Positions 1,958 to 9,606 of a DNA stretch of 64,000 nt are shown here, piece by piece. A program made the position numbers and the translations under genes. How positions within the stretch are numbered: position 1 is the stretch's first letter; every line of letters starts with the position of its first letter. A model generated the notes under the pieces. It did no database searches and was not told where the DNA came from. It worked only from the letters and a program-made list of their open reading frames with translations. Source of the DNA: an uncultured Gemmatimonadales bacterium (GTDB taxonomy: Bacteria > Gemmatimonadota > Gemmatimonadetes > Gemmatimonadales > Gemmatimonadaceae); contig CAWBZV010000002.1 of the NCBI GenBank assembly GCA_963793305.1, positions 544,001 through 608,000 of the forward strand. Direction: 5' to 3'.

Positions 1958-2347
1958 CTACAATGTCGAGAGTCCGCCGCGGATCCAGGAGGCGAGCTCG
2001 GTCTCGGTCATCCGCTTGTCGGCCACCGCTCGCATCGTCTCGACGACATCGTCGTCCGTTCGCCCCAGGTCGTATCCATTCAACTCCAGGAAGATGGCCG
2101 CCACGAGGAACGCCGTGCGCTTGTTGCCATCGGAGTACGGGTGCGACATGGCGATCCCGAACGCATACGCCGCCGCAAGCTGCGCCATGTCAGCATCGGG
2201 ATCGTAGACGTATTTCTGCTGAGGTCGTGCGAGCGCGGCGGCTAGCGCGGTCGCATCGCGCATACCCTGCAGACCGCCGTGCTCATGGAGCTGACTGGTG
2301 TGGACGGCGTCCACGATGACGGCGTCCACCCAGATCGGTTCGTCCAC
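1958..2347 (-). CDS. doc: Type II TA toxin, Doc/Fic family
   Basis: HPYSDGNKRTA Fic/Doc motif, HGG..G.RD N-terminus, 129 aa, directly downstream of an antitoxin. Confidence 0.9.
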   Translation of the reverse strand: MDEPIWVDAVIVDAVHTSQLHEHGGLQGMRDATALAAALARPQQKYVYDPDADMAQLAAAYAFGIAMSHPYSDGNKRTAFLVAAIFLELNGYDLGRTDDDVVETMRAVADKRMTETELASWIRGGLSTL

Positions 2348-2578
2348 TTACTTCCGTGACAAGTCGCGGAGCGCACCTCTGTACTTCTTCGCGATGCGAT
2401 CATAAGCCTCCATCGCGCGCTCAGTCGTCGGATCGTACGGCGTGAGCAGCACACCGGCCTCAGTCTCGACCGCGAAAACCGTGTCGCCCACGCCGATGTG
2501 AAATCGATCGGCCATCTCCTTTGGGATGGTCGCCGACACCGATGTGCCAGTCTGCCGGACAATCACTTTCTTGACCAT
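2348..2578 (-). CDS. AbrB/MazE-type antitoxin
   Basis: MVKKVIVRQTGTSVSATIPKEMADRFHIGVGD...LLTPYDP...KYRGALRDLS. Swapped-hairpin pattern, abuts the toxin gene. Confidence 0.88.
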   Translation of the reverse strand: MVKKVIVRQTGTSVSATIPKEMADRFHIGVGDTVFAVETEAGVLLTPYDPTTERAMEAYDRIAKKYRGALRDLSRK

Positions 2579-2584
2579 GGATCT

Positions 2585-2617
2585 ATTATAAGCATAATAA
2601 TGCTTATTTGCAAGCAT
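2585..2617 (-). promoter_or_regulatory. Sigma70 promoter and palindromic operator of the TA operon
   Basis: Minus strand TTGCAA (2613-2608)-N17-TATAAT (2590-2585), 6 nt before the ATG. Inverted repeat ATAAGCAT-N4-ATGCTTAT at 2588-2607, with a third half-site AAGCAT at 2612-2617. Confidence 0.85.
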
Positions 2618-4217: not shown

Positions 4218-5669
4218 ATGGTGGCAGGCGAGGGCGGTCCGTGGCGGGCGCTCGTCGAACACGCCAGCGAAATGCTGTGCGTGACCGGGCCGCATGGGCG
4301 GCTCGTATACGTTAACGCAGCATGGCGCCGAACCCTCGGCTATAGCCTCGAGGAAGCGGCATCACGCCACCCGGCCGAGTTCGTGGCGAGCGAAGATCGC
4401 GCGCGCTATCGCTCGATCGCCAAGCGCATGGTCGAAGGACACCCCGTCGAGGATTTCGAGGCATCACTCGTCGCCAAAGACGGACGGTACGTCGTGTGTC
4501 GCGGATGGGCCGTCGCGCAGTACACGGACGGAACGCTCACCGGCACGGTAGCCGGATATCACGATTGCACCGCGGAGCGCGCGGTCGAGCGAGCGATCGA
4601 TGCGCTGGCGGAAAGCGAGGCGCGATTCCGGCGACTGTCTGATGCCGCGACGGATGGCGTCGCCGTGTCGCGCGAGGGCTTGCTGCGTGAAGTCAATGCC
4701 GCGTGGTGCCGGATGTTCGGCGTCACGGAAGAGGCCGCGCTCGGCACACAGACCGCCATGTTGGTCGCCGAGGACGAGCGACAGGACGTATTCCGGCGTA
4801 TGGCGGAGGCGCCGTCGGTCGCCCAGCTGCTCACGCTCGTACGACCGGACGGCACGACGTTCGATGGCGAGCTCACCGCCGGCCCGATTTCGTATCGCGG
4901 CACACCGGCGCGTATCCTGGTGGTGCGCGACATGTCGGCGTGGATGCGCGTCCACCGCCTCAAGAACGAGTTCGTGTCGACGGTCTCGCACGAGCTGCGG
5001 ACCCCACTGACCGCGATCCAAGGCGCCATCAAGCTGTTGGAGAGCGGCGCGATAGCGGCCGGCACACCAAAGGCCGCCCAGCTCCTCACCGTCGCTCGCG
5101 CCAACTCCGAACGCCTCGGACGACTGGTCAACGATCTCCTCGATCTCGAGAAGATCGAGGCGGGGCGTCTCGTCCTGCGCCGCGAGGAAGTGTCGCCACA
5201 CGATGTCGTGAGCGCCGCGCGTGATGCCACCGCCGAGTTGGCCGCCCAGGCGCACGTCGGCGTCACCGCCATGGTCCTCACCGAGCGCACGTTCCCCGCC
5301 GATCCCGATCGCGTCGTGCAGGTGCTCACGAACCTGGTGTCGAACGCCATCAAGTTCGCGGCGACGGATTCGCGCGTGCGCGTCGAGGTCTGCCTCGCGA
5401 GCGAAGCGGCCGTGCGATTCGCGGTGACGAACGTCGGTGCGGGCATCTCGGCCGCGGATATGCCCCGGTTGTTCACGAAGTTCGGTCAGCTGGATGGATC
5501 GGATGCCCGGCGCCACGGCGGGACCGGCCTTGGGCTCGCGATAGCGAAATCGATCGTGGAACAGCATGGTGGACGCATCGGTGTGCAGTCGGTCGTCGGC
5601 GGTGAGACGACGTTCTGGGTGGAGTGGCCCGTCAGCGGGTATCCGGCAGACGGTCGAGCACATCCCTGA
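4218..5669 (+). CDS. Cytoplasmic PAS-PAS sensor histidine kinase
   Basis: Two PAS-like repeats, H-box VSHELRTPL, N-box NLVSNAIKF, G2 box GGTGLGL. Confidence 0.92.
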   Translation: MVAGEGGPWRALVEHASEMLCVTGPHGRLVYVNAAWRRTLGYSLEEAASRHPAEFVASEDRARYRSIAKRMVEGHPVEDFEASLVAKDGRYVVCRGWAVAQYTDGTLTGTVAGYHDCTAERAVERAIDALAESEARFRRLSDAATDGVAVSREGLLREVNAAWCRMFGVTEEAALGTQTAMLVAEDERQDVFRRMAEAPSVAQLLTLVRPDGTTFDGELTAGPISYRGTPARILVVRDMSAWMRVHRLKNEFVSTVSHELRTPLTAIQGAIKLLESGAIAAGTPKAAQLLTVARANSERLGRLVNDLLDLEKIEAGRLVLRREEVSPHDVVSAARDATAELAAQAHVGVTAMVLTERTFPADPDRVVQVLTNLVSNAIKFAATDSRVRVEVCLASEAAVRFAVTNVGAGISAADMPRLFTKFGQLDGSDARRHGGTGLGLAIAKSIVEQHGGRIGVQSVVGGETTFWVEWPVSGYPADGRAHP

Positions 5670-7176
5670 CCGCGCGCGAGAGCCCCGCGGCGGTGAAGGG
5701 CTTCTGCACAAACGGTGTCGTGGCATCGATCAGCCCGCGACGGATCACGTCGTCGTCCGTATACCCCGACATATACAGCGGACGTACGTTGGGTCTGACG
5801 GCGGCGACCGCCTGGTACGCCGCGCGACCCGACCCGCCCGGCATGACGAGATCGGTGAGCACCAGCGCGATCGGACCCACATGCGTCCGCGCCGCCTCGA
5901 GCGCTTCCGCGCCGGTCGCGGCAGTGATGACGCTATAGCCCTGTGAGACCAGCACGCGCGCCGTCAGCGCGCGAACCGCCGGCTCGTCCTCGACCACGAG
6001 AATCGTCTCCGTGTTGGAGCGGATGCTCGGCGCCTGAACGGGCGGTGTCGCTTGATTGACGTCGGGCTGGGCGAGTGGAAGGTAGATCTTGAATGTCGTG
6101 CCCAGTCCGACCTCGCTATAGACCCAGATGTACCCTCCGGACTGCTTGACGATGCCGTAGACGGTCGCGAGCCCCAGTCCCGTCCCGGAGCCGAGCGCTT
6201 TCGTGGTAAAGAACGGCTCGAAGAGATGGTCCCGAACGTGGCGGTCCATGCCGCAACCCGTGTCGGTCACCGCCAGGACGGCGTATCGCCCGGGCACCAC
6301 GACCGTCCGGCGCTGCGTGTAGCACGCGTCGAGCTCGGCCACTCCAGTCTCGACGGTCAGTGTCCCACACCCGGGCATCGCATCGCGCGCGTTCGCCGCC
6401 AGGTTCATGAGCACTTGCTCGAGCTGACCGGCATCGGCCACGATCGGCAACTGCTCATCGCCCGGTCGGGTCACGATGTCGATGTCCTCAGGGATCAGGC
6501 GGCGGAGCATCGCCTCCAGGCCGAACACGATCGTATTCAGGTCGAGCACGCGCGGGCGGAGCAGCTGCTTCCGGCTGAACGTGAGGAGCTGACTCGTGAG
6601 TCGGCCAGCAGCCGCCACCGCGGTCAATATGGACTCGACTTCCGGCCGCGCGGCGTGATCCGGCGGGAGGTCTTCCCCGAGCAGCTCGCCGCTGGCGCTG
6701 ATCACCGTCAGCAGGTTGTTGAAGTCGTGGGCGATCCCGCCGGCGAGGCGACCGACGGCGTCCATCTTCTGTGCCTGGCGCAACTGCTCCTCGAGCCGGC
6801 GATGTGCCGTGACGTCATCGACGACCACGAGGTGCGCGGGCCGGTCGTCGAACGTGGTCGCCGAAAACGTGAGATTGACGATGAGCGTCCGGCCGTCGCG
6901 CGTCCGATGCGTGACATCCGTGCGCACGTTGCGCGCGGCGAATCGATTCAGGAGCTCAGGCGCGTCCGTCCGTTCGAGGTCGGACAGGGTCAGCGCCAGA
7001 AATGCCTCGCGGGAGTATCCGTAGCACCCGATCGCCGCCTCGTTCACATCGCGAATCGCCAGCGTGGCATTGTCGTAGATGAACATGGGCACGGGCATTT
7101 CGAGAAACAGCAAACGGTAGGACTCCGGCGCGGTTCGCGACAATGGCAGGGCGATCGAGGCGGCGCTACGCGGCAT
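5632..7176 (-). CDS. Hybrid PAS histidine kinase with receiver domain (CckA-like architecture)
   Basis: AHDFNNLL H-box, EPFFTTK, GTGLGL, C-terminal receiver domain (ILVVEDE...TDLVMPG...QKPF). Confidence 0.93.
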
Positions 7177-8737
7177 TGGCGATCACCGTGAGGTATTCGA
7201 TCGAGCCGACGAACGCGGCGAACACGTCCGGGCGCCACCAGTGCGAGAGCTTTCGCATCTTGGCGACCGCCTCGCCCGGCGGAACGGGATCCTGGTAGCT
7301 GCGCGCCGAGGTCATCGCATCGAAGACGTTGGCGACGCACACGATCTGGGCATGCAGCGGGATCTCGTCGCCCGCGAGCCCGTCGGGATAGCCGGTGCCG
7401 TCGAGCTTCTCGTGATGCCACCGGATGATGGGCTTGATGAGCCACGGGAACTCGAGGTCCTCGAGAATCTCGAGTCCCCATTCCGGGTGCTTCTTGATGA
7501 TGTCGAACTCCTCAGGCGTCAGCTTCCCGGGCTTATTCAAAATGGTCGGCGGGATGCGCACCTTGCCGATGTCGTGCAGCGACGCACCCACCCGCACGGT
7601 CGTGACGTTGACCGGATCGAGCGCCAACGCCTCGGCGATTGCGACCGCATAGGCCGCGACGCGCTCCGAATGCCCATAGGTGTACGTATCGGCCGACTCG
7701 AGCGACCGGCCGTATTTGGCGACGACGTCGAGAAACGTGGCTTCCAGATCCTCGACGTCGGCGACGACGCGCCGATGATCGGCATTGGCGCCGAGCTGGC
7801 TGAACAGCCGGTGGGCGGCCGTGAGCCGGGTCATCGCGTCGTGATTCCGCTCCTGCTTGATGTACAGCAGCGCCATGTCGCGATTGGCTTCGGCGATCTG
7901 GAGCGGCGCGCCAACCGCCGTCGCGTTGGCCAGCGCCGCCCGGAATCGCTGCTCGGCCAAGTCGGGGATGCCCATCTCGCGATAGACGATGCCGAGCGAT
8001 CGATACGCATCGGCCTTGCCGCTGACGTTGCCGAGTCGCGTGAAGATCTCGAGCGCCTGCTCCGCGTCCGTGAACGCGCGATCGTAGTCGGCCAGTCCGA
8101 CCTGGACTTCGGATCGGTTCAACAGGACGCTGGCCTGGAACGGGATGTCGCCCAATCGTTCGGCGATCTTGAGGCTGGCCGCGAAATATTCGTCGGCCTT
8201 GCGCCACTCGCGCTGGTCGGCCGTCAGCATGCCGAGGTTATGATACGCGACCGCGCACCCCTGCTCGTCGCGGGCTTGGCGGAAGCGCATCAGCGAGCGC
8301 AGGTACCGCTTGCGCGCCGCGGGAAAGTCGCCTTGAATGTTGGCGATGATGCCGAAGTTCTGCTCGATCCGCGCGACGAGTAGTGCTTCGGATCCCGCGA
8401 GCTCGAGCGCCCGGGTCAACTGGGTGGTGGCGTTCGCCCACTGCGCCTGGTCGATGTGGACGAGCGCCCGACCGTTGAGCGCTTCCGCGGCAGTCACGTG
8501 ATCGTCGGCCGCGATGGCCATCTCGTACGCGGTCTGGCACATCATGATCGCCCGGTCGAACTCTTGCCGGCGGCGATGAATCGAGGCGCATCGCCGGAGG
8601 GCAGTCGCTCGTTCGCGAGCGTCGTAAGACGGCACGGCCATGGCCACCGCGGTGTAGGCTTCGAGCGCCCCGGTGGTGTCGCCGGCCCGGTCCAAGTCGA
8701 GCGCGGCGGACAGCAGCGGCCCTGCCGCGCTGGTCAC
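7166..8737 (-). CDS. TPR-repeat plus HD-GYP domain protein (putative c-di-GMP phosphodiesterase or receptor)
   Basis: About 330 aa of TPR-like helical repeats (AVAYHNLG, ADAYRSLGIVY), then GHSERVA, LHDIGK, HHEKLDGTGYPDGL. Confidence 0.9.
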   Translation of the reverse strand: MTSAAGPLLSAALDLDRAGDTTGALEAYTAVAMAVPSYDARERATALRRCASIHRRRQEFDRAIMMCQTAYEMAIAADDHVTAAEALNGRALVHIDQAQWANATTQLTRALELAGSEALLVARIEQNFGIIANIQGDFPAARKRYLRSLMRFRQARDEQGCAVAYHNLGMLTADQREWRKADEYFAASLKIAERLGDIPFQASVLLNRSEVQVGLADYDRAFTDAEQALEIFTRLGNVSGKADAYRSLGIVYREMGIPDLAEQRFRAALANATAVGAPLQIAEANRDMALLYIKQERNHDAMTRLTAAHRLFSQLGANADHRRVVADVEDLEATFLDVVAKYGRSLESADTYTYGHSERVAAYAVAIAEALALDPVNVTTVRVGASLHDIGKVRIPPTILNKPGKLTPEEFDIIKKHPEWGLEILEDLEFPWLIKPIIRWHHEKLDGTGYPDGLAGDEIPLHAQIVCVANVFDAMTSARSYQDPVPPGEAVAKMRKLSHWWRPDVFAAFVGSIEYLTVIANAA

Positions 8738-9282
8738 CGCCGCTCAGCTCCTGCGTACACGGAGAAGTGGCCGATGAGTGCGCTCACCGTGTGCGAATCG
8801 AGGTGGAGGATCGATGGCAACCATTGCAGGATCTGACCGAGTGGCCCATTCAGGTAGACGATGCTCAGTGAGTTCGACGGCTGCGGATTACACTGGGCGT
8901 AGCCGAGTGTGAGCGTCGCCGGTACCAGGAACTGCAAGCCCTCGGGCTGGAGCACGGCGGTCAGGTGGCCGTCCGCTGGAGCGGTGGCGGTGATGGTCGT
9001 CTGCCTGAGCAACGCGCCGGGCGGAATGAGCAGCGTGTGCGGTCCGAAGTTGATCACGCCACCCAATAGACCAATGGTCGCCGTGTCCGACGCCGCGACC
9101 GTGTCCGCGGCACACACGAACAGAGACTCCGCCGGCGGCGAGAAGAGCAGGTTCGACCGCACGGAAGGAGAGGTCACGTTGGTGCGGTCGTCGCGACAGC
9201 CAGTCAGCAACCAGGCAGTCGTGGCGGCGCCGACGAGGAGCGCGCCGAAGAGCAGATTGCGTTTGAGTGTGATGGCTGACAT
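8734..9282 (-). CDS. Lipoprotein with a ZU5-like domain and C-terminal HFS motif
   Basis: Lipobox LTGC. The segment TIGLLGGVI...LLIPPGAL...QPEGLQFLVPATLTL resembles ZU5. Ends IGHFSVYAGAERR and overlaps the next gene by GTGA. Confidence 0.75.
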   Translation of the reverse strand: MSAITLKRNLLFGALLVGAATTAWLLTGCRDDRTNVTSPSVRSNLLFSPPAESLFVCAADTVAASDTATIGLLGGVINFGPHTLLIPPGALLRQTTITATAPADGHLTAVLQPEGLQFLVPATLTLGYAQCNPQPSNSLSIVYLNGPLGQILQWLPSILHLDSHTVSALIGHFSVYAGAERR

Positions 9283-9606
9283 CGCGAATACCGGTGGGAG
9301 TCGGACTGAATGACCACAAAAACTTCTGTCCTTTCAGGTGCGACTAGTATTTGCGCAATGTCGCAACTGGTGCAGAATCGCGAGATCCGTCGATGTCCGG
9401 CAAATGGTGCGTCACTCTATCGCATTGCTGCATAGCGATTAAGCAGATACGCATCGAGTGCGCTCGCCCGAGCCGTGAACTATCGTGACACGACGCGGTT
9501 GCGGGTCGTCGAGACGTAAATGCGTCTATCTGTCACGTTATTTAACAGACCGCTTTCTAGGCGGTTCGGGAGAATCTCGGAGTGATCGGTGCTCGTCCCC
9601 GACGCG

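Follow-up and report, generated by a model that had tools for sequence, protein, structure and literature searches.

A predicted self-cleaving lipoprotein paired with TPR–HD-GYP proteins in Gemmatimonadota: a candidate peptide-signalling module

In a 64,000-nucleotide (nt) stretch of DNA from an uncultured Gemmatimonadales bacterium (GenBank assembly GCA_963793305.1, contig CAWBZV010000002.1, positions 544,001 to 608,000; hereafter the window), a gene for a lipoprotein with a predicted ZU5/GAIN fold overlaps a gene for a TPR protein with a predicted HD-GYP output domain. We find that this lipoprotein/TPR pair is a real, phylum-wide module of the Gemmatimonadota. As to how it works, we lean slightly towards a reading in which the short C-terminal tail of the lipoprotein is a self-released peptide, imported by an oligopeptide (Opp) transporter and read by the TPR domain, as in RRNPP signalling. 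Behind this reading stand data on the pairing of the genes, on the fold and where the cut site falls in it relative to known ones, on the conservation of tail length and nucleophile, on the linkage to opp genes and on the charges of tail and groove.

What we infer is that the protein cleaves, that its tail is released, imported and bound, and in which direction the effect goes. In the proposed mechanism, the lipoprotein would be exported, fold and cut itself between F173 and S174, and the cut tail would be retained as the last strand of the fold until some trigger frees it. The freed peptide would be imported through the Opp/App transporter and bind the TPR groove, altering HD-GYP phosphodiesterase activity and with it the level of cyclic di-GMP (c-di-GMP). 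Those paralogous pairs whose partner is TPR-only or double-TPR, often beside sigma-54 activators, would pass the same input to other outputs. A cell with two membranes would capture a periplasmic peptide on its own binding protein, and we therefore consider self-sensing of the envelope state (lipoprotein unfolding or breakdown) no less likely than signalling between cells. More tentatively, and at slightly under an even chance, we entertain a phylum-wide Gemmatimonadota language, in which a self-cut, Stachel-like heptapeptide would be imported by Opp and decoded by its cognate TPR protein, with specificity set by tail positions 2 and 7 and with control of c-di-GMP and of sigma-54 transcription.

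At the locus itself, three co-oriented open reading frames on the minus strand were confirmed. A preliminary description of this DNA, made from the sequence alone, had reported overlaps of 4 nt and 11 nt and HFS codons at 8769–8761; these proved exact, the overlaps lying at 8734–8737 (genes 1 and 2) and 7166–7176 (genes 2 and 3), with VYAGAERR and then a stop following the HFS. The features are as follows.

8734–9282, minus strand: gene 1, a 182-amino-acid (aa) lipoprotein and predicted peptide precursor, consisting of signal peptide, linker and one ZU5/GAIN-fold domain
9196–9282, minus strand: signal peptide and lipobox ending at Cys29 (hydrophobic stretch at residues 10–28, ending LTG-C29)
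8743–9117, minus strand: predicted ZU5/GAIN-fold beta-sandwich, about residues 56–180, with conserved Cys57 and Cys131 (AlphaFold model, structural matches)
8761–8769, minus strand: H172-F173-S174, predicted autocleavage motif with the cut at F173/S174 (alignment to GAIN/FIIND N-fragments)
8737–8763, minus strand: C-terminal tail SVYAGAERR, which forms the final strand of the fold and is the candidate signal peptide (SxYAVAW in the family consensus)
7166–8737, minus strand: gene 2, a 523-aa TPR–HD-GYP protein with a GTG start (Pfam TPR_12 1.2e-26, HD_5 2.4e-36)
7733–8725, minus strand: TPR superhelix of about eight repeats with conserved Asn88, Asn127, Asn167 and Asn207, candidate peptide groove
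8573–8575, minus strand: Arg55, TPR repeat position 12, which would pair with tail Glu180 here
8450–8452, minus strand: Asp96, TPR repeat position 13, which covaries with tail position 2
7241–7702, minus strand: HD-GYP domain with HD, HHExxDGxGYP and DA..R motifs (the HD_5 match above)
7328–7330, minus strand: Asn470, at a metal-ligand Asp position equivalent by motif to PmGH D305
5632–7176, minus strand: gene 3, a 514-aa PAS-HisKA-HATPase-REC hybrid kinase by Pfam, a genus-level neighbour outside the phylum-wide module

Fold, cut site and tail of the lipoprotein

First, the lipoprotein bears the marks of an exported and folded domain. Its lipoprotein-type export signal was judged by hydropathy and by the conserved Cys29, which is kept in 142 of 148 aligned homologues. 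Cys57 (146/148) and Cys131 (147/148) are conserved as well and probably form a disulfide; together the three cysteines are consistent with a lipidated protein that folds after export. Gene 1 alone has no Pfam match, weak matches to Pfam ZU5 occur in 56 of the 148 family members (E values from 4.9e-5 to 0.1), and PDB sequence searches, whether with the lipoprotein or with its profile, brought no significant match, the ZO-1 ZU5 domain appearing weakly at E 1.6–1.9. An AlphaFold model built on the 148 homologues (pLDDT 85, and 94–98 across most of the domain) supports a ZU5/GAIN fold: the ankyrin ZU5 domain is the top structural match (Z 12.0, root-mean-square deviation 2.4, 112 aligned), Foldseek finds ankyrin-B ZU5 at E 1.6e-5, and UNC5b ZU5 (Z 9.0) is followed by the GAIN domains of CD97 (Z 9.1) and BAI3 (Z 8.0) and by CARD8, Nup98 and NLRP1. 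Structure prediction had been named in the preliminary description as a check on the ZU5 assignment, which it upholds; the further statement that the protein is almost entirely one ZU5-like domain holds for the fold and not for the extent, the domain covering only residues ~56–180 and the first 50 residues being signal peptide and low-confidence linker.

Second, the HFS motif lies where related domains are cut. In the model it sits in the turn between strands 165–172 and 175–180, and it is conserved at all three positions among the 148 homologues (H in 146, F in 143, S in 146). Eight of the 50 structural alignments listed stop exactly at query residue 173, one of them to ZO-1 ZU5 and the others to seven GAIN or FIIND chains (6x6c (1212), 7crv, 5kvm (382), 7qu8 (249), 8hc0 (566), 8vti (854) and 6v55 (827)) from GPR126, GPR110, latrophilin-3, GPR56, GPR97 and two NLRP1. 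The ends of these seven chains, which we take to be autocleavage sites, place F173/S174 in register with the known cuts, as expected from the earlier proposal that HFS is an autocleavage motif here. The best fold matches, the ankyrin and UNC5b ZU5 domains, are presumably non-cleaving, and their top scores would suit a lipoprotein that never cleaves and acts as a ZU5 adaptor, its HFS being kept for folding. We give that alternative the least credence of those considered here: a His, a hydrophobic residue and an S/C/T nucleophile stand at the site in 146 of the 151 best representatives, the site is in register with cleaved structures, and bacterial HFS domains of the same superfamily do cleave.

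Third, the tail is conserved in length and at its first residue. The family comprises 1,129 clusters at 50% identity in a search of representatives, most homologues having ~160–250 aa. Among the best 151 sequences, chosen without the tail pattern, 143 carry HFS, three HL(S/T) and five no match (three of these being fragments), and the tail has seven residues in 107 of 146. A larger set of 494 unique C-ends gave 477 motif matches, with exactly seven residues after the cut site in 366; tail position 1 in these is S (355), C (8) or T (3). The search also permitted A and G there, and neither occurred. The consensus S-x-Y-A-V-A-(W/Y/E/D/F) is inflated, because genome-derived tails were partly fetched with the pattern HFSxYAVAW. 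The window's own tail is a variant common to its genus: its seventh residue is Glu, and two additional Arg follow.

In seven members a second copy of the tail stands at the exact C-terminus, and in six of these the outer copy is nearer the consensus than the copy at the cut site; one duplicated form is common to all four cluster members checked. If the tail were merely a structural strand, the inner copy would be expected to be the conserved one; alternatively, the outer copy fills the strand slot.

Such a structural role is the core of an alternative that we regard as unlikely, in which the module is real and co-regulated, the larger fragment or an envelope partner acts, and the TPR domain reads some other ligand. 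The model makes the tail a core strand of the sandwich (residues 175–180, the last strand), and cleaved pieces of bacterial MAIN domains, compared below, remain associated. Fold needs alone could account for the conservation of the tail, and some members without the catalytic His still keep both tail and partner. All of this weighs against a released signal: with bound fragments and a tail that is a core strand, release needs a trigger, and strand release is the weakest step of our model. The duplicated tails are left unexplained by a purely structural role, as are two findings described below, the opp linkage in 14 gene orders and the opposite charges at ligand-face positions, which hold in new loci.

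Besides these family members, a fourth member in the window's own genome (G000:C5:930288-933304; L145:5089-7982) itself lacks the catalytic His; its C-end reads DGFTVYATAY, and its gene is flanked by those of a sigma-54 activator and a TPR-only protein. This three-gene order with His-less tails recurs in L086, L087, L120, L150, L217 and L218. Weaker matches to the ZU5 profile occur in long open frames of 380–1,080 aa (for example G038:C10, G147:C3:670416 and G052:C5), which are probably multidomain surface proteins nearer the MAIN architecture.

Linkage to TPR genes, importers and kinases

The lipoprotein family turned up in 83 of the 151 genomes that we sampled across the phylum, and the preliminary description had suggested examining its neighbourhood for co-occurrence with TPR–HD-GYP genes. 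We took as the next gene the next one downstream that is not itself a lipoprotein/ZU5 gene. In a first sample of 103 loci with 133 lipoprotein genes, a same-strand TPR gene comes next for 111, 45 of them with HD-GYP; the remainder are followed by another gene (17), an opposite-strand TPR gene (1) or the edge of the locus (4). Further samples, which overlap in part and are not independent, gave 104 of 117 (11 edges), 110 of 145 (13 edges, 22 other) and 49 of 65. Genes were called by a simple codon-usage script that missed or clipped some (e.g. L131, L147, L159), so these counts are approximate; they nonetheless show that the two genes stay together phylum-wide. Close homologues carry the names of Gemmatimonadaceae or Gemmatimonadota, and 79 of the 80 named loci bear names of this phylum, the remaining one being labelled Chloroflexi and possibly mis-binned. 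Genome searches covered Gemmatimonadota, ten cluster look-ups gave one taxon name, and no relatives were found in the viral contigs or plasmids searched.

Partners are of four types, namely TPR–HD-GYP, TPR-only (300–360 aa), double TPR (~690 aa) and very large TPR–HD-GYP proteins, and lipoprotein genes frequently stand in tandem arrays. The window's genome holds two further linked pairs and one orphan lipoprotein. Orphans occur on both sides (TPR–HD-GYP orphans L160–L162; L002), a point against the peptide-signal reading. Arrays of up to six lipoprotein genes accompany double-TPR genes in L083, L104, L185, L209 and L316, and the lipoprotein gene preceding the double TPR usually encodes Ser/Cys at tail position 6 and often an HF/C cut motif. 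Very large TPR-...-HD-GYP proteins (1,000–1,600 aa) were seen in L140, L143, L144, L374 and L381; in L140 and L143 they follow a binding protein and two permeases, with a divergent lipoprotein gene. In one clade an exported protein of ~477 aa comes after the TPR–HD-GYP gene (L083:8668-10101, similar in L171, L173 and L248).

Peptide import, which the preliminary description had said would be needed, has a candidate in the neighbourhood. A family-5 solute-binding protein of AppA/OppA type (best PDB match AppA, E 2e-77) lies at the locus in 18 of 61 genomes, in 10 genera, 3 families and 14 gene orders, as against 0.45–0.5% of random stretches of the genome that holds the window; the count is 19 genomes with G145, whose lipoprotein was missed by the gene caller. 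In four more (G010, G019, G077, G129) the binding protein is 2–6 kb past the fetched stretch, judged by coordinates, and 19 of 54 GTDB loci of at least 9 kb contain it. The order in L183 is oppA-oppB-oppC-(lipoprotein)-(TPR-HD-GYP)-oppD-oppF, and seven loci have the first part of it.

Other importer data count against Opp uptake of the tail. The binding protein is unlinked to the pair in the window's genome, where a full opp operon lies elsewhere (C2:167915-173320, ~380 kb off); among 38 long held-out loci from the family to which the window belongs, linkage is seen in only 2; the binding protein is near-universal in the order, even in genomes without a lipoprotein match; and its NCBIfam scores all fall under the cut-off and assign it no substrate. 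The scarcity of linked importers in the window's family would suit a model without import, in which the TPR domain binds the tail of the unexported precursor in the cytoplasm, as an export or folding monitor or a chaperone, and passes secretion stress to c-di-GMP. Such a monitor would draw on the same tail–groove covariation while removing the topology problem, and it accommodates both the TPR-only partners and the variants that lack the His yet retain the tail. We nevertheless judge it distinctly unlikely: it leaves unexplained why HFS is conserved with S/C/T-only nucleophiles and why the binding protein is linked, and the conserved Cys pair suggests that the protein folds once exported.

Sigma-54 control also recurs around the module. 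After the TPR genes, its commonest neighbours are the binding protein and sigma-54 activators, the latter in 21 of 61 genomes (background 3.6–5%), and sigma-54-type -24/-12 sites precede 27 of 284 lipoprotein genes, compared with 0.9 in shuffles and 0 on the other strand. Shared regulation of this kind could keep the genes adjacent, which favours the reading of the tail as a structural strand in a co-regulated module over that of a released peptide. In L132, L133, L138, L139 and L146, a lipoprotein gene, a TPR-only gene, a short sigma-54 activator gene (~240–325 aa, with no receiver domain called), a TPR–HD-GYP gene and a binding-protein gene follow one another on one strand, and here the TPR-only protein may control the activator. 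Upstream of the window's lipoprotein gene we found neither a sigma-70 promoter nor a canonical sigma-54 site. The region 9283–9606 has blocks at ~9420–9450 and ~9310–9345 that are kept in four same-genus genomes, and a repeated GCACCA.TTGC motif; the region matched no known promoter type. One contig assembled from RNA of a relative (run X17; share 0.08; 59 differences over 680 bases) covers 8613–9292, that is, the lipoprotein and the start of gene 2; it does not show a single transcript and was not used as evidence.

The preliminary description had made the hybrid kinase of gene 3 part of the signalling operon, a claim that did not survive comparison. Kinases occur in module loci in 5 of 61 genomes, 5 of 54 loci and 3 of 38 loci, at or under their background of 11–13% in random 10-kb windows, and we rejected the kinase as a core part; it is linked only in this genus and possibly its sister genus. 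It may be co-transcribed with the pair in this genome. A single three-gene circuit with the kinase as a required part is accordingly very unlikely, even though gene 3 overlaps gene 2 by 11 nt, keeps its place in all three same-genus orthologous loci (83–96% identity), has a 52–55% homologue divergently upstream in three loci of the sister genus, and has counterparts in kinases flanking the paralogous pair. Paralogues within the window's genome reach 41–50% identity, so the 52–55% matches may not be orthologues. A second PAS histidine kinase gene (4218–5669) converges on gene 3 and overlaps its end, an arrangement also found in two same-genus genomes.

The TPR groove and the HD-GYP domain

The candidate receptor appears to be cytoplasmic in that no signal peptide or membrane segment was detected in gene 2 (highest 19-residue hydropathy 1.57). 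Its TPR part (~335 aa; model pLDDT 93) matches APPBP2 (Z 30.0), LGN (27.8), a phage Rap with peptide (26.2), NprR (21.2) and AimR (20.5), as well as MalT, and Asn88, Asn127 and Asn167 are conserved at 98–100% across 163 non-redundant pairs. Positions 52, 55, 89, 96, 240, 247 and 280 map to TPR positions 6, 9, 12, 13 and 33, which are described as ligand-facing in the available text of PMC1261162.

Across 122 non-redundant TPR–HD-GYP pairs (effective number 36), the top two couplings between any lipoprotein and any TPR column are tail2–TPR96 and tail7–TPR55, and the same two show the strongest anticorrelation of charge among 9,587 column pairs (r −0.69 and −0.83, respectively). In held-out loci, an acidic tail position 7 goes with Arg55 in 5 of 5 cases and an aromatic one with Arg/Lys55 in 0 of 30, and like charges at tail2/TPR96 occur in 0 of 14. 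Over the combined 153 pairs, residue 55 is basic with acidic tail7 in 20 of 20 and with aromatic tail7 in 2 of 126, and like charges at tail2/TPR96 are seen in one of 82 charged tails. In that sole case, L085, the tail is duplicated and its outer copy bears the charge opposite to position 96, so that the outer copy fits the receptor's Arg96 and the inner does not. The pattern is suggestive of contact between tail and groove, as far as sequences can tell, and supplies tail7/TPR55 and tail2/TPR96 as predicted specificity pairs.

Control for relatedness weakens it. On the tree, tail7/TPR55 changes only one to three times; basic tail2 with acidic 96 gives five independent pairs, 3.2 in the same way and 0 opposite (p 0.25). 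TPR96 ranks first of 87 columns under this control, and the reverse combination, acidic tail2 with basic 96, ranks just 8 of 92. The share of ligand-face positions is modest, at 3–4 of the top 6 couplings against a 20% background; 4 of 95 other lipoprotein columns also reach four ligand-face couplings, and ~4–20% of other columns, depending on weighting, match the enrichment. The structural matches are generic too, APPBP2 and LGN scoring above Rap. These points tell against the TPR domain as a tail receptor, and the lack of significance under tree control suits the structural-strand alternative. Prediction of a complex between TPR residues 1–340 and the last 30 residues of the lipoprotein gave a median score of 0.20 (mark 0.32) and counts neither way, the partner being a 30-residue C-end and not a free 7–9-mer. 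Of the preliminary suggestion that the tail or the cleaved state is read by the TPR module, then, the fold, register, pairing and importer speak in favour; the expected covariation with the groove is present as a charge pattern that held-out loci repeat, and is not significant once relatedness is controlled.

The output domain of gene 2 is a predicted HD-GYP phosphodiesterase: it carries LHDIGK and WHHEKLDGTGYP, matches HD-GYP structures (9rbz, Z 25.4; 4r8z, Z 20.8; 4mcw, Z 20.6), and among 68 homologues 62 keep the HD motif and 61 the GYP motif. Some HD-GYP domains are inactive or act on other dinucleotides. In this copy, Asn470 replaces an Asp found in all three same-genus orthologues and in at least 90% of 82 aligned homologues; at the equivalent position, the D305A change of PmGH reduces and does not abolish activity, according to the available text of PMC4159591. 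Gene 2 has three private G-to-A changes (7609, 7330 and 7177), all in CGA(C/T) context; positions 7609 and 7177 read as G in public runs, 7330 being absent from the rows listed. Asn470 is either a base-call error or a private change, the former being the likely cause. A paralogue on contig C12 (G000:C12; L001:9940-10010) has a frameshift in its HD domain and is intact in three same-genus genomes, and with the private G-to-A changes this points to systematic base-call errors in the assembly.

Elsewhere in the window (1958–2617), a small AbrB/MazE-like gene is followed by a Fic/Doc-like gene, by eye a toxin–antitoxin pair.

Comparison with known systems

The lipoprotein–TPR–HD-GYP arrangement was not found in the literature searched. 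No paper combined ZU5 and HD-GYP, and searches on ZU5 autoproteolysis, Gemmatimonadota signalling and c-di-GMP, RRNPP in Gram-negatives, HD-GYP–TPR and tethered agonists listed no such module, subscription journals being thinly covered. In motifs and fold, the output domain of gene 2 resembles the HD-GYP phosphodiesterases PmGH, PA4781 and DvhD; TPR input is missing from the main text of the HD-GYP survey of Galperin and Chou (10.1101/2021.11.05.467447).

The ZU5 autopeptidases (PIDD, NLRP1/CARD8 FIIND and Nup98) share the ZU5 fold and the cut-site register. In these and in bacterial ZU5 proteins the cut parts large domains, unlike in gene 1. Bacterial ZU5 domains are reported in toxins, surface proteins and conflict systems (PMC3482391, PMC8195603), and those in the available text of PMC3482391 are parts of large toxins and surface enzymes, with no stand-alone lipoproteins beside TPR–HD-GYP genes.

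Also close are the MAIN domains, bacterial GAIN-like domains that are cut between F and S of HFS, as established by Edman sequencing, and whose pieces stay bound (10.64898/2026.05.12.724683). Gene 1 has in common with them the fold superfamily, the HFS motif and, by prediction, export and anchoring in the envelope. MAIN proteins, as described there, average 158 kDa and run signal peptide, cargo, MAIN, C-terminal anchor, so that cargo is released and the small piece stays; gene 1, by contrast, has its lipid anchor at the N-terminal lipobox, no cargo and a stop 7–9 residues past the site, and its tail is the only releasable part. The main text of the preprint does not refer to Gemmatimonadota, TPR, lipoproteins, ZU5 or HD-GYP, and its tables of 15,000 proteins may list members. 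Brogan and Rudner there tie no signalling to the C-terminal fragment and leave the role of this small piece open, a question to which the module offers a direct test. If our reading is true, the freed strand of a GAIN-type domain would itself be a signal in bacteria.

That possibility recalls the GAIN domains of adhesion G-protein-coupled receptors (GPCRs). The tail aligns with the position of their Stachel strand, and in both cases a short self-freed strand is the proposed signal. The Stachel stays fused to a seven-transmembrane receptor, whereas here a free peptide would have to pass through the inner membrane and attach to a different protein in the cytoplasm. A bacterial self-cleavage linked to signalling through a freed strand would bear on the origin of adhesion GPCR tethered agonism.

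A close parallel also exists with the RRNPP(A) systems of Bacillota (Rap–Phr, NprR–NprX, PlcR–PapR, Rgg–SHP and AimR–AimP), a phylum for which imported-peptide/TPR signalling is described. RRNPP propeptides use signal peptidase I. As there, the gene for a predicted exported precursor adjoins one for a cytoplasmic TPR protein, whose fold matches those of Rap, NprR and AimR, and genes for an oligopeptide importer are linked. The candidate peptide likewise has 7–9 residues, and a genome can hold many paralogous pairs and tandem peptide duplications; duplications of this kind are described for Rap–Phr pheromones (PMC11343458). Published criteria list a propeptide of 10–100 aa, Sec export, a receptor of ~250–500 aa with TPRs and adjacent genes (available text of PMC10075063). 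Receptor and precursor genes adjoin here and the receptor has TPR repeats, its TPR part and the TPR-only partners falling within that size range and the whole of gene 2, at 523 aa, just above it; at 182 aa, the product of gene 1 is longer than such propeptides. The module differs further in its two-membraned host phylum, in a precursor that is a folded lipoprotein of 160–250 aa, in maturation by predicted self-cleavage where RRNPP systems use outside proteases, and in an output that is HD-GYP or no fused domain in place of a helix-turn-helix domain or Rap bundle. It probably works like RRNPP systems yet lies outside that family, its TPR domain resembling their receptors in fold. If so, an RRNPP-like system would exist in a two-membrane phylum with no maturing protease required, and for a common, mostly uncultured soil phylum there would be a defined path by which envelope or neighbour could act on c-di-GMP.

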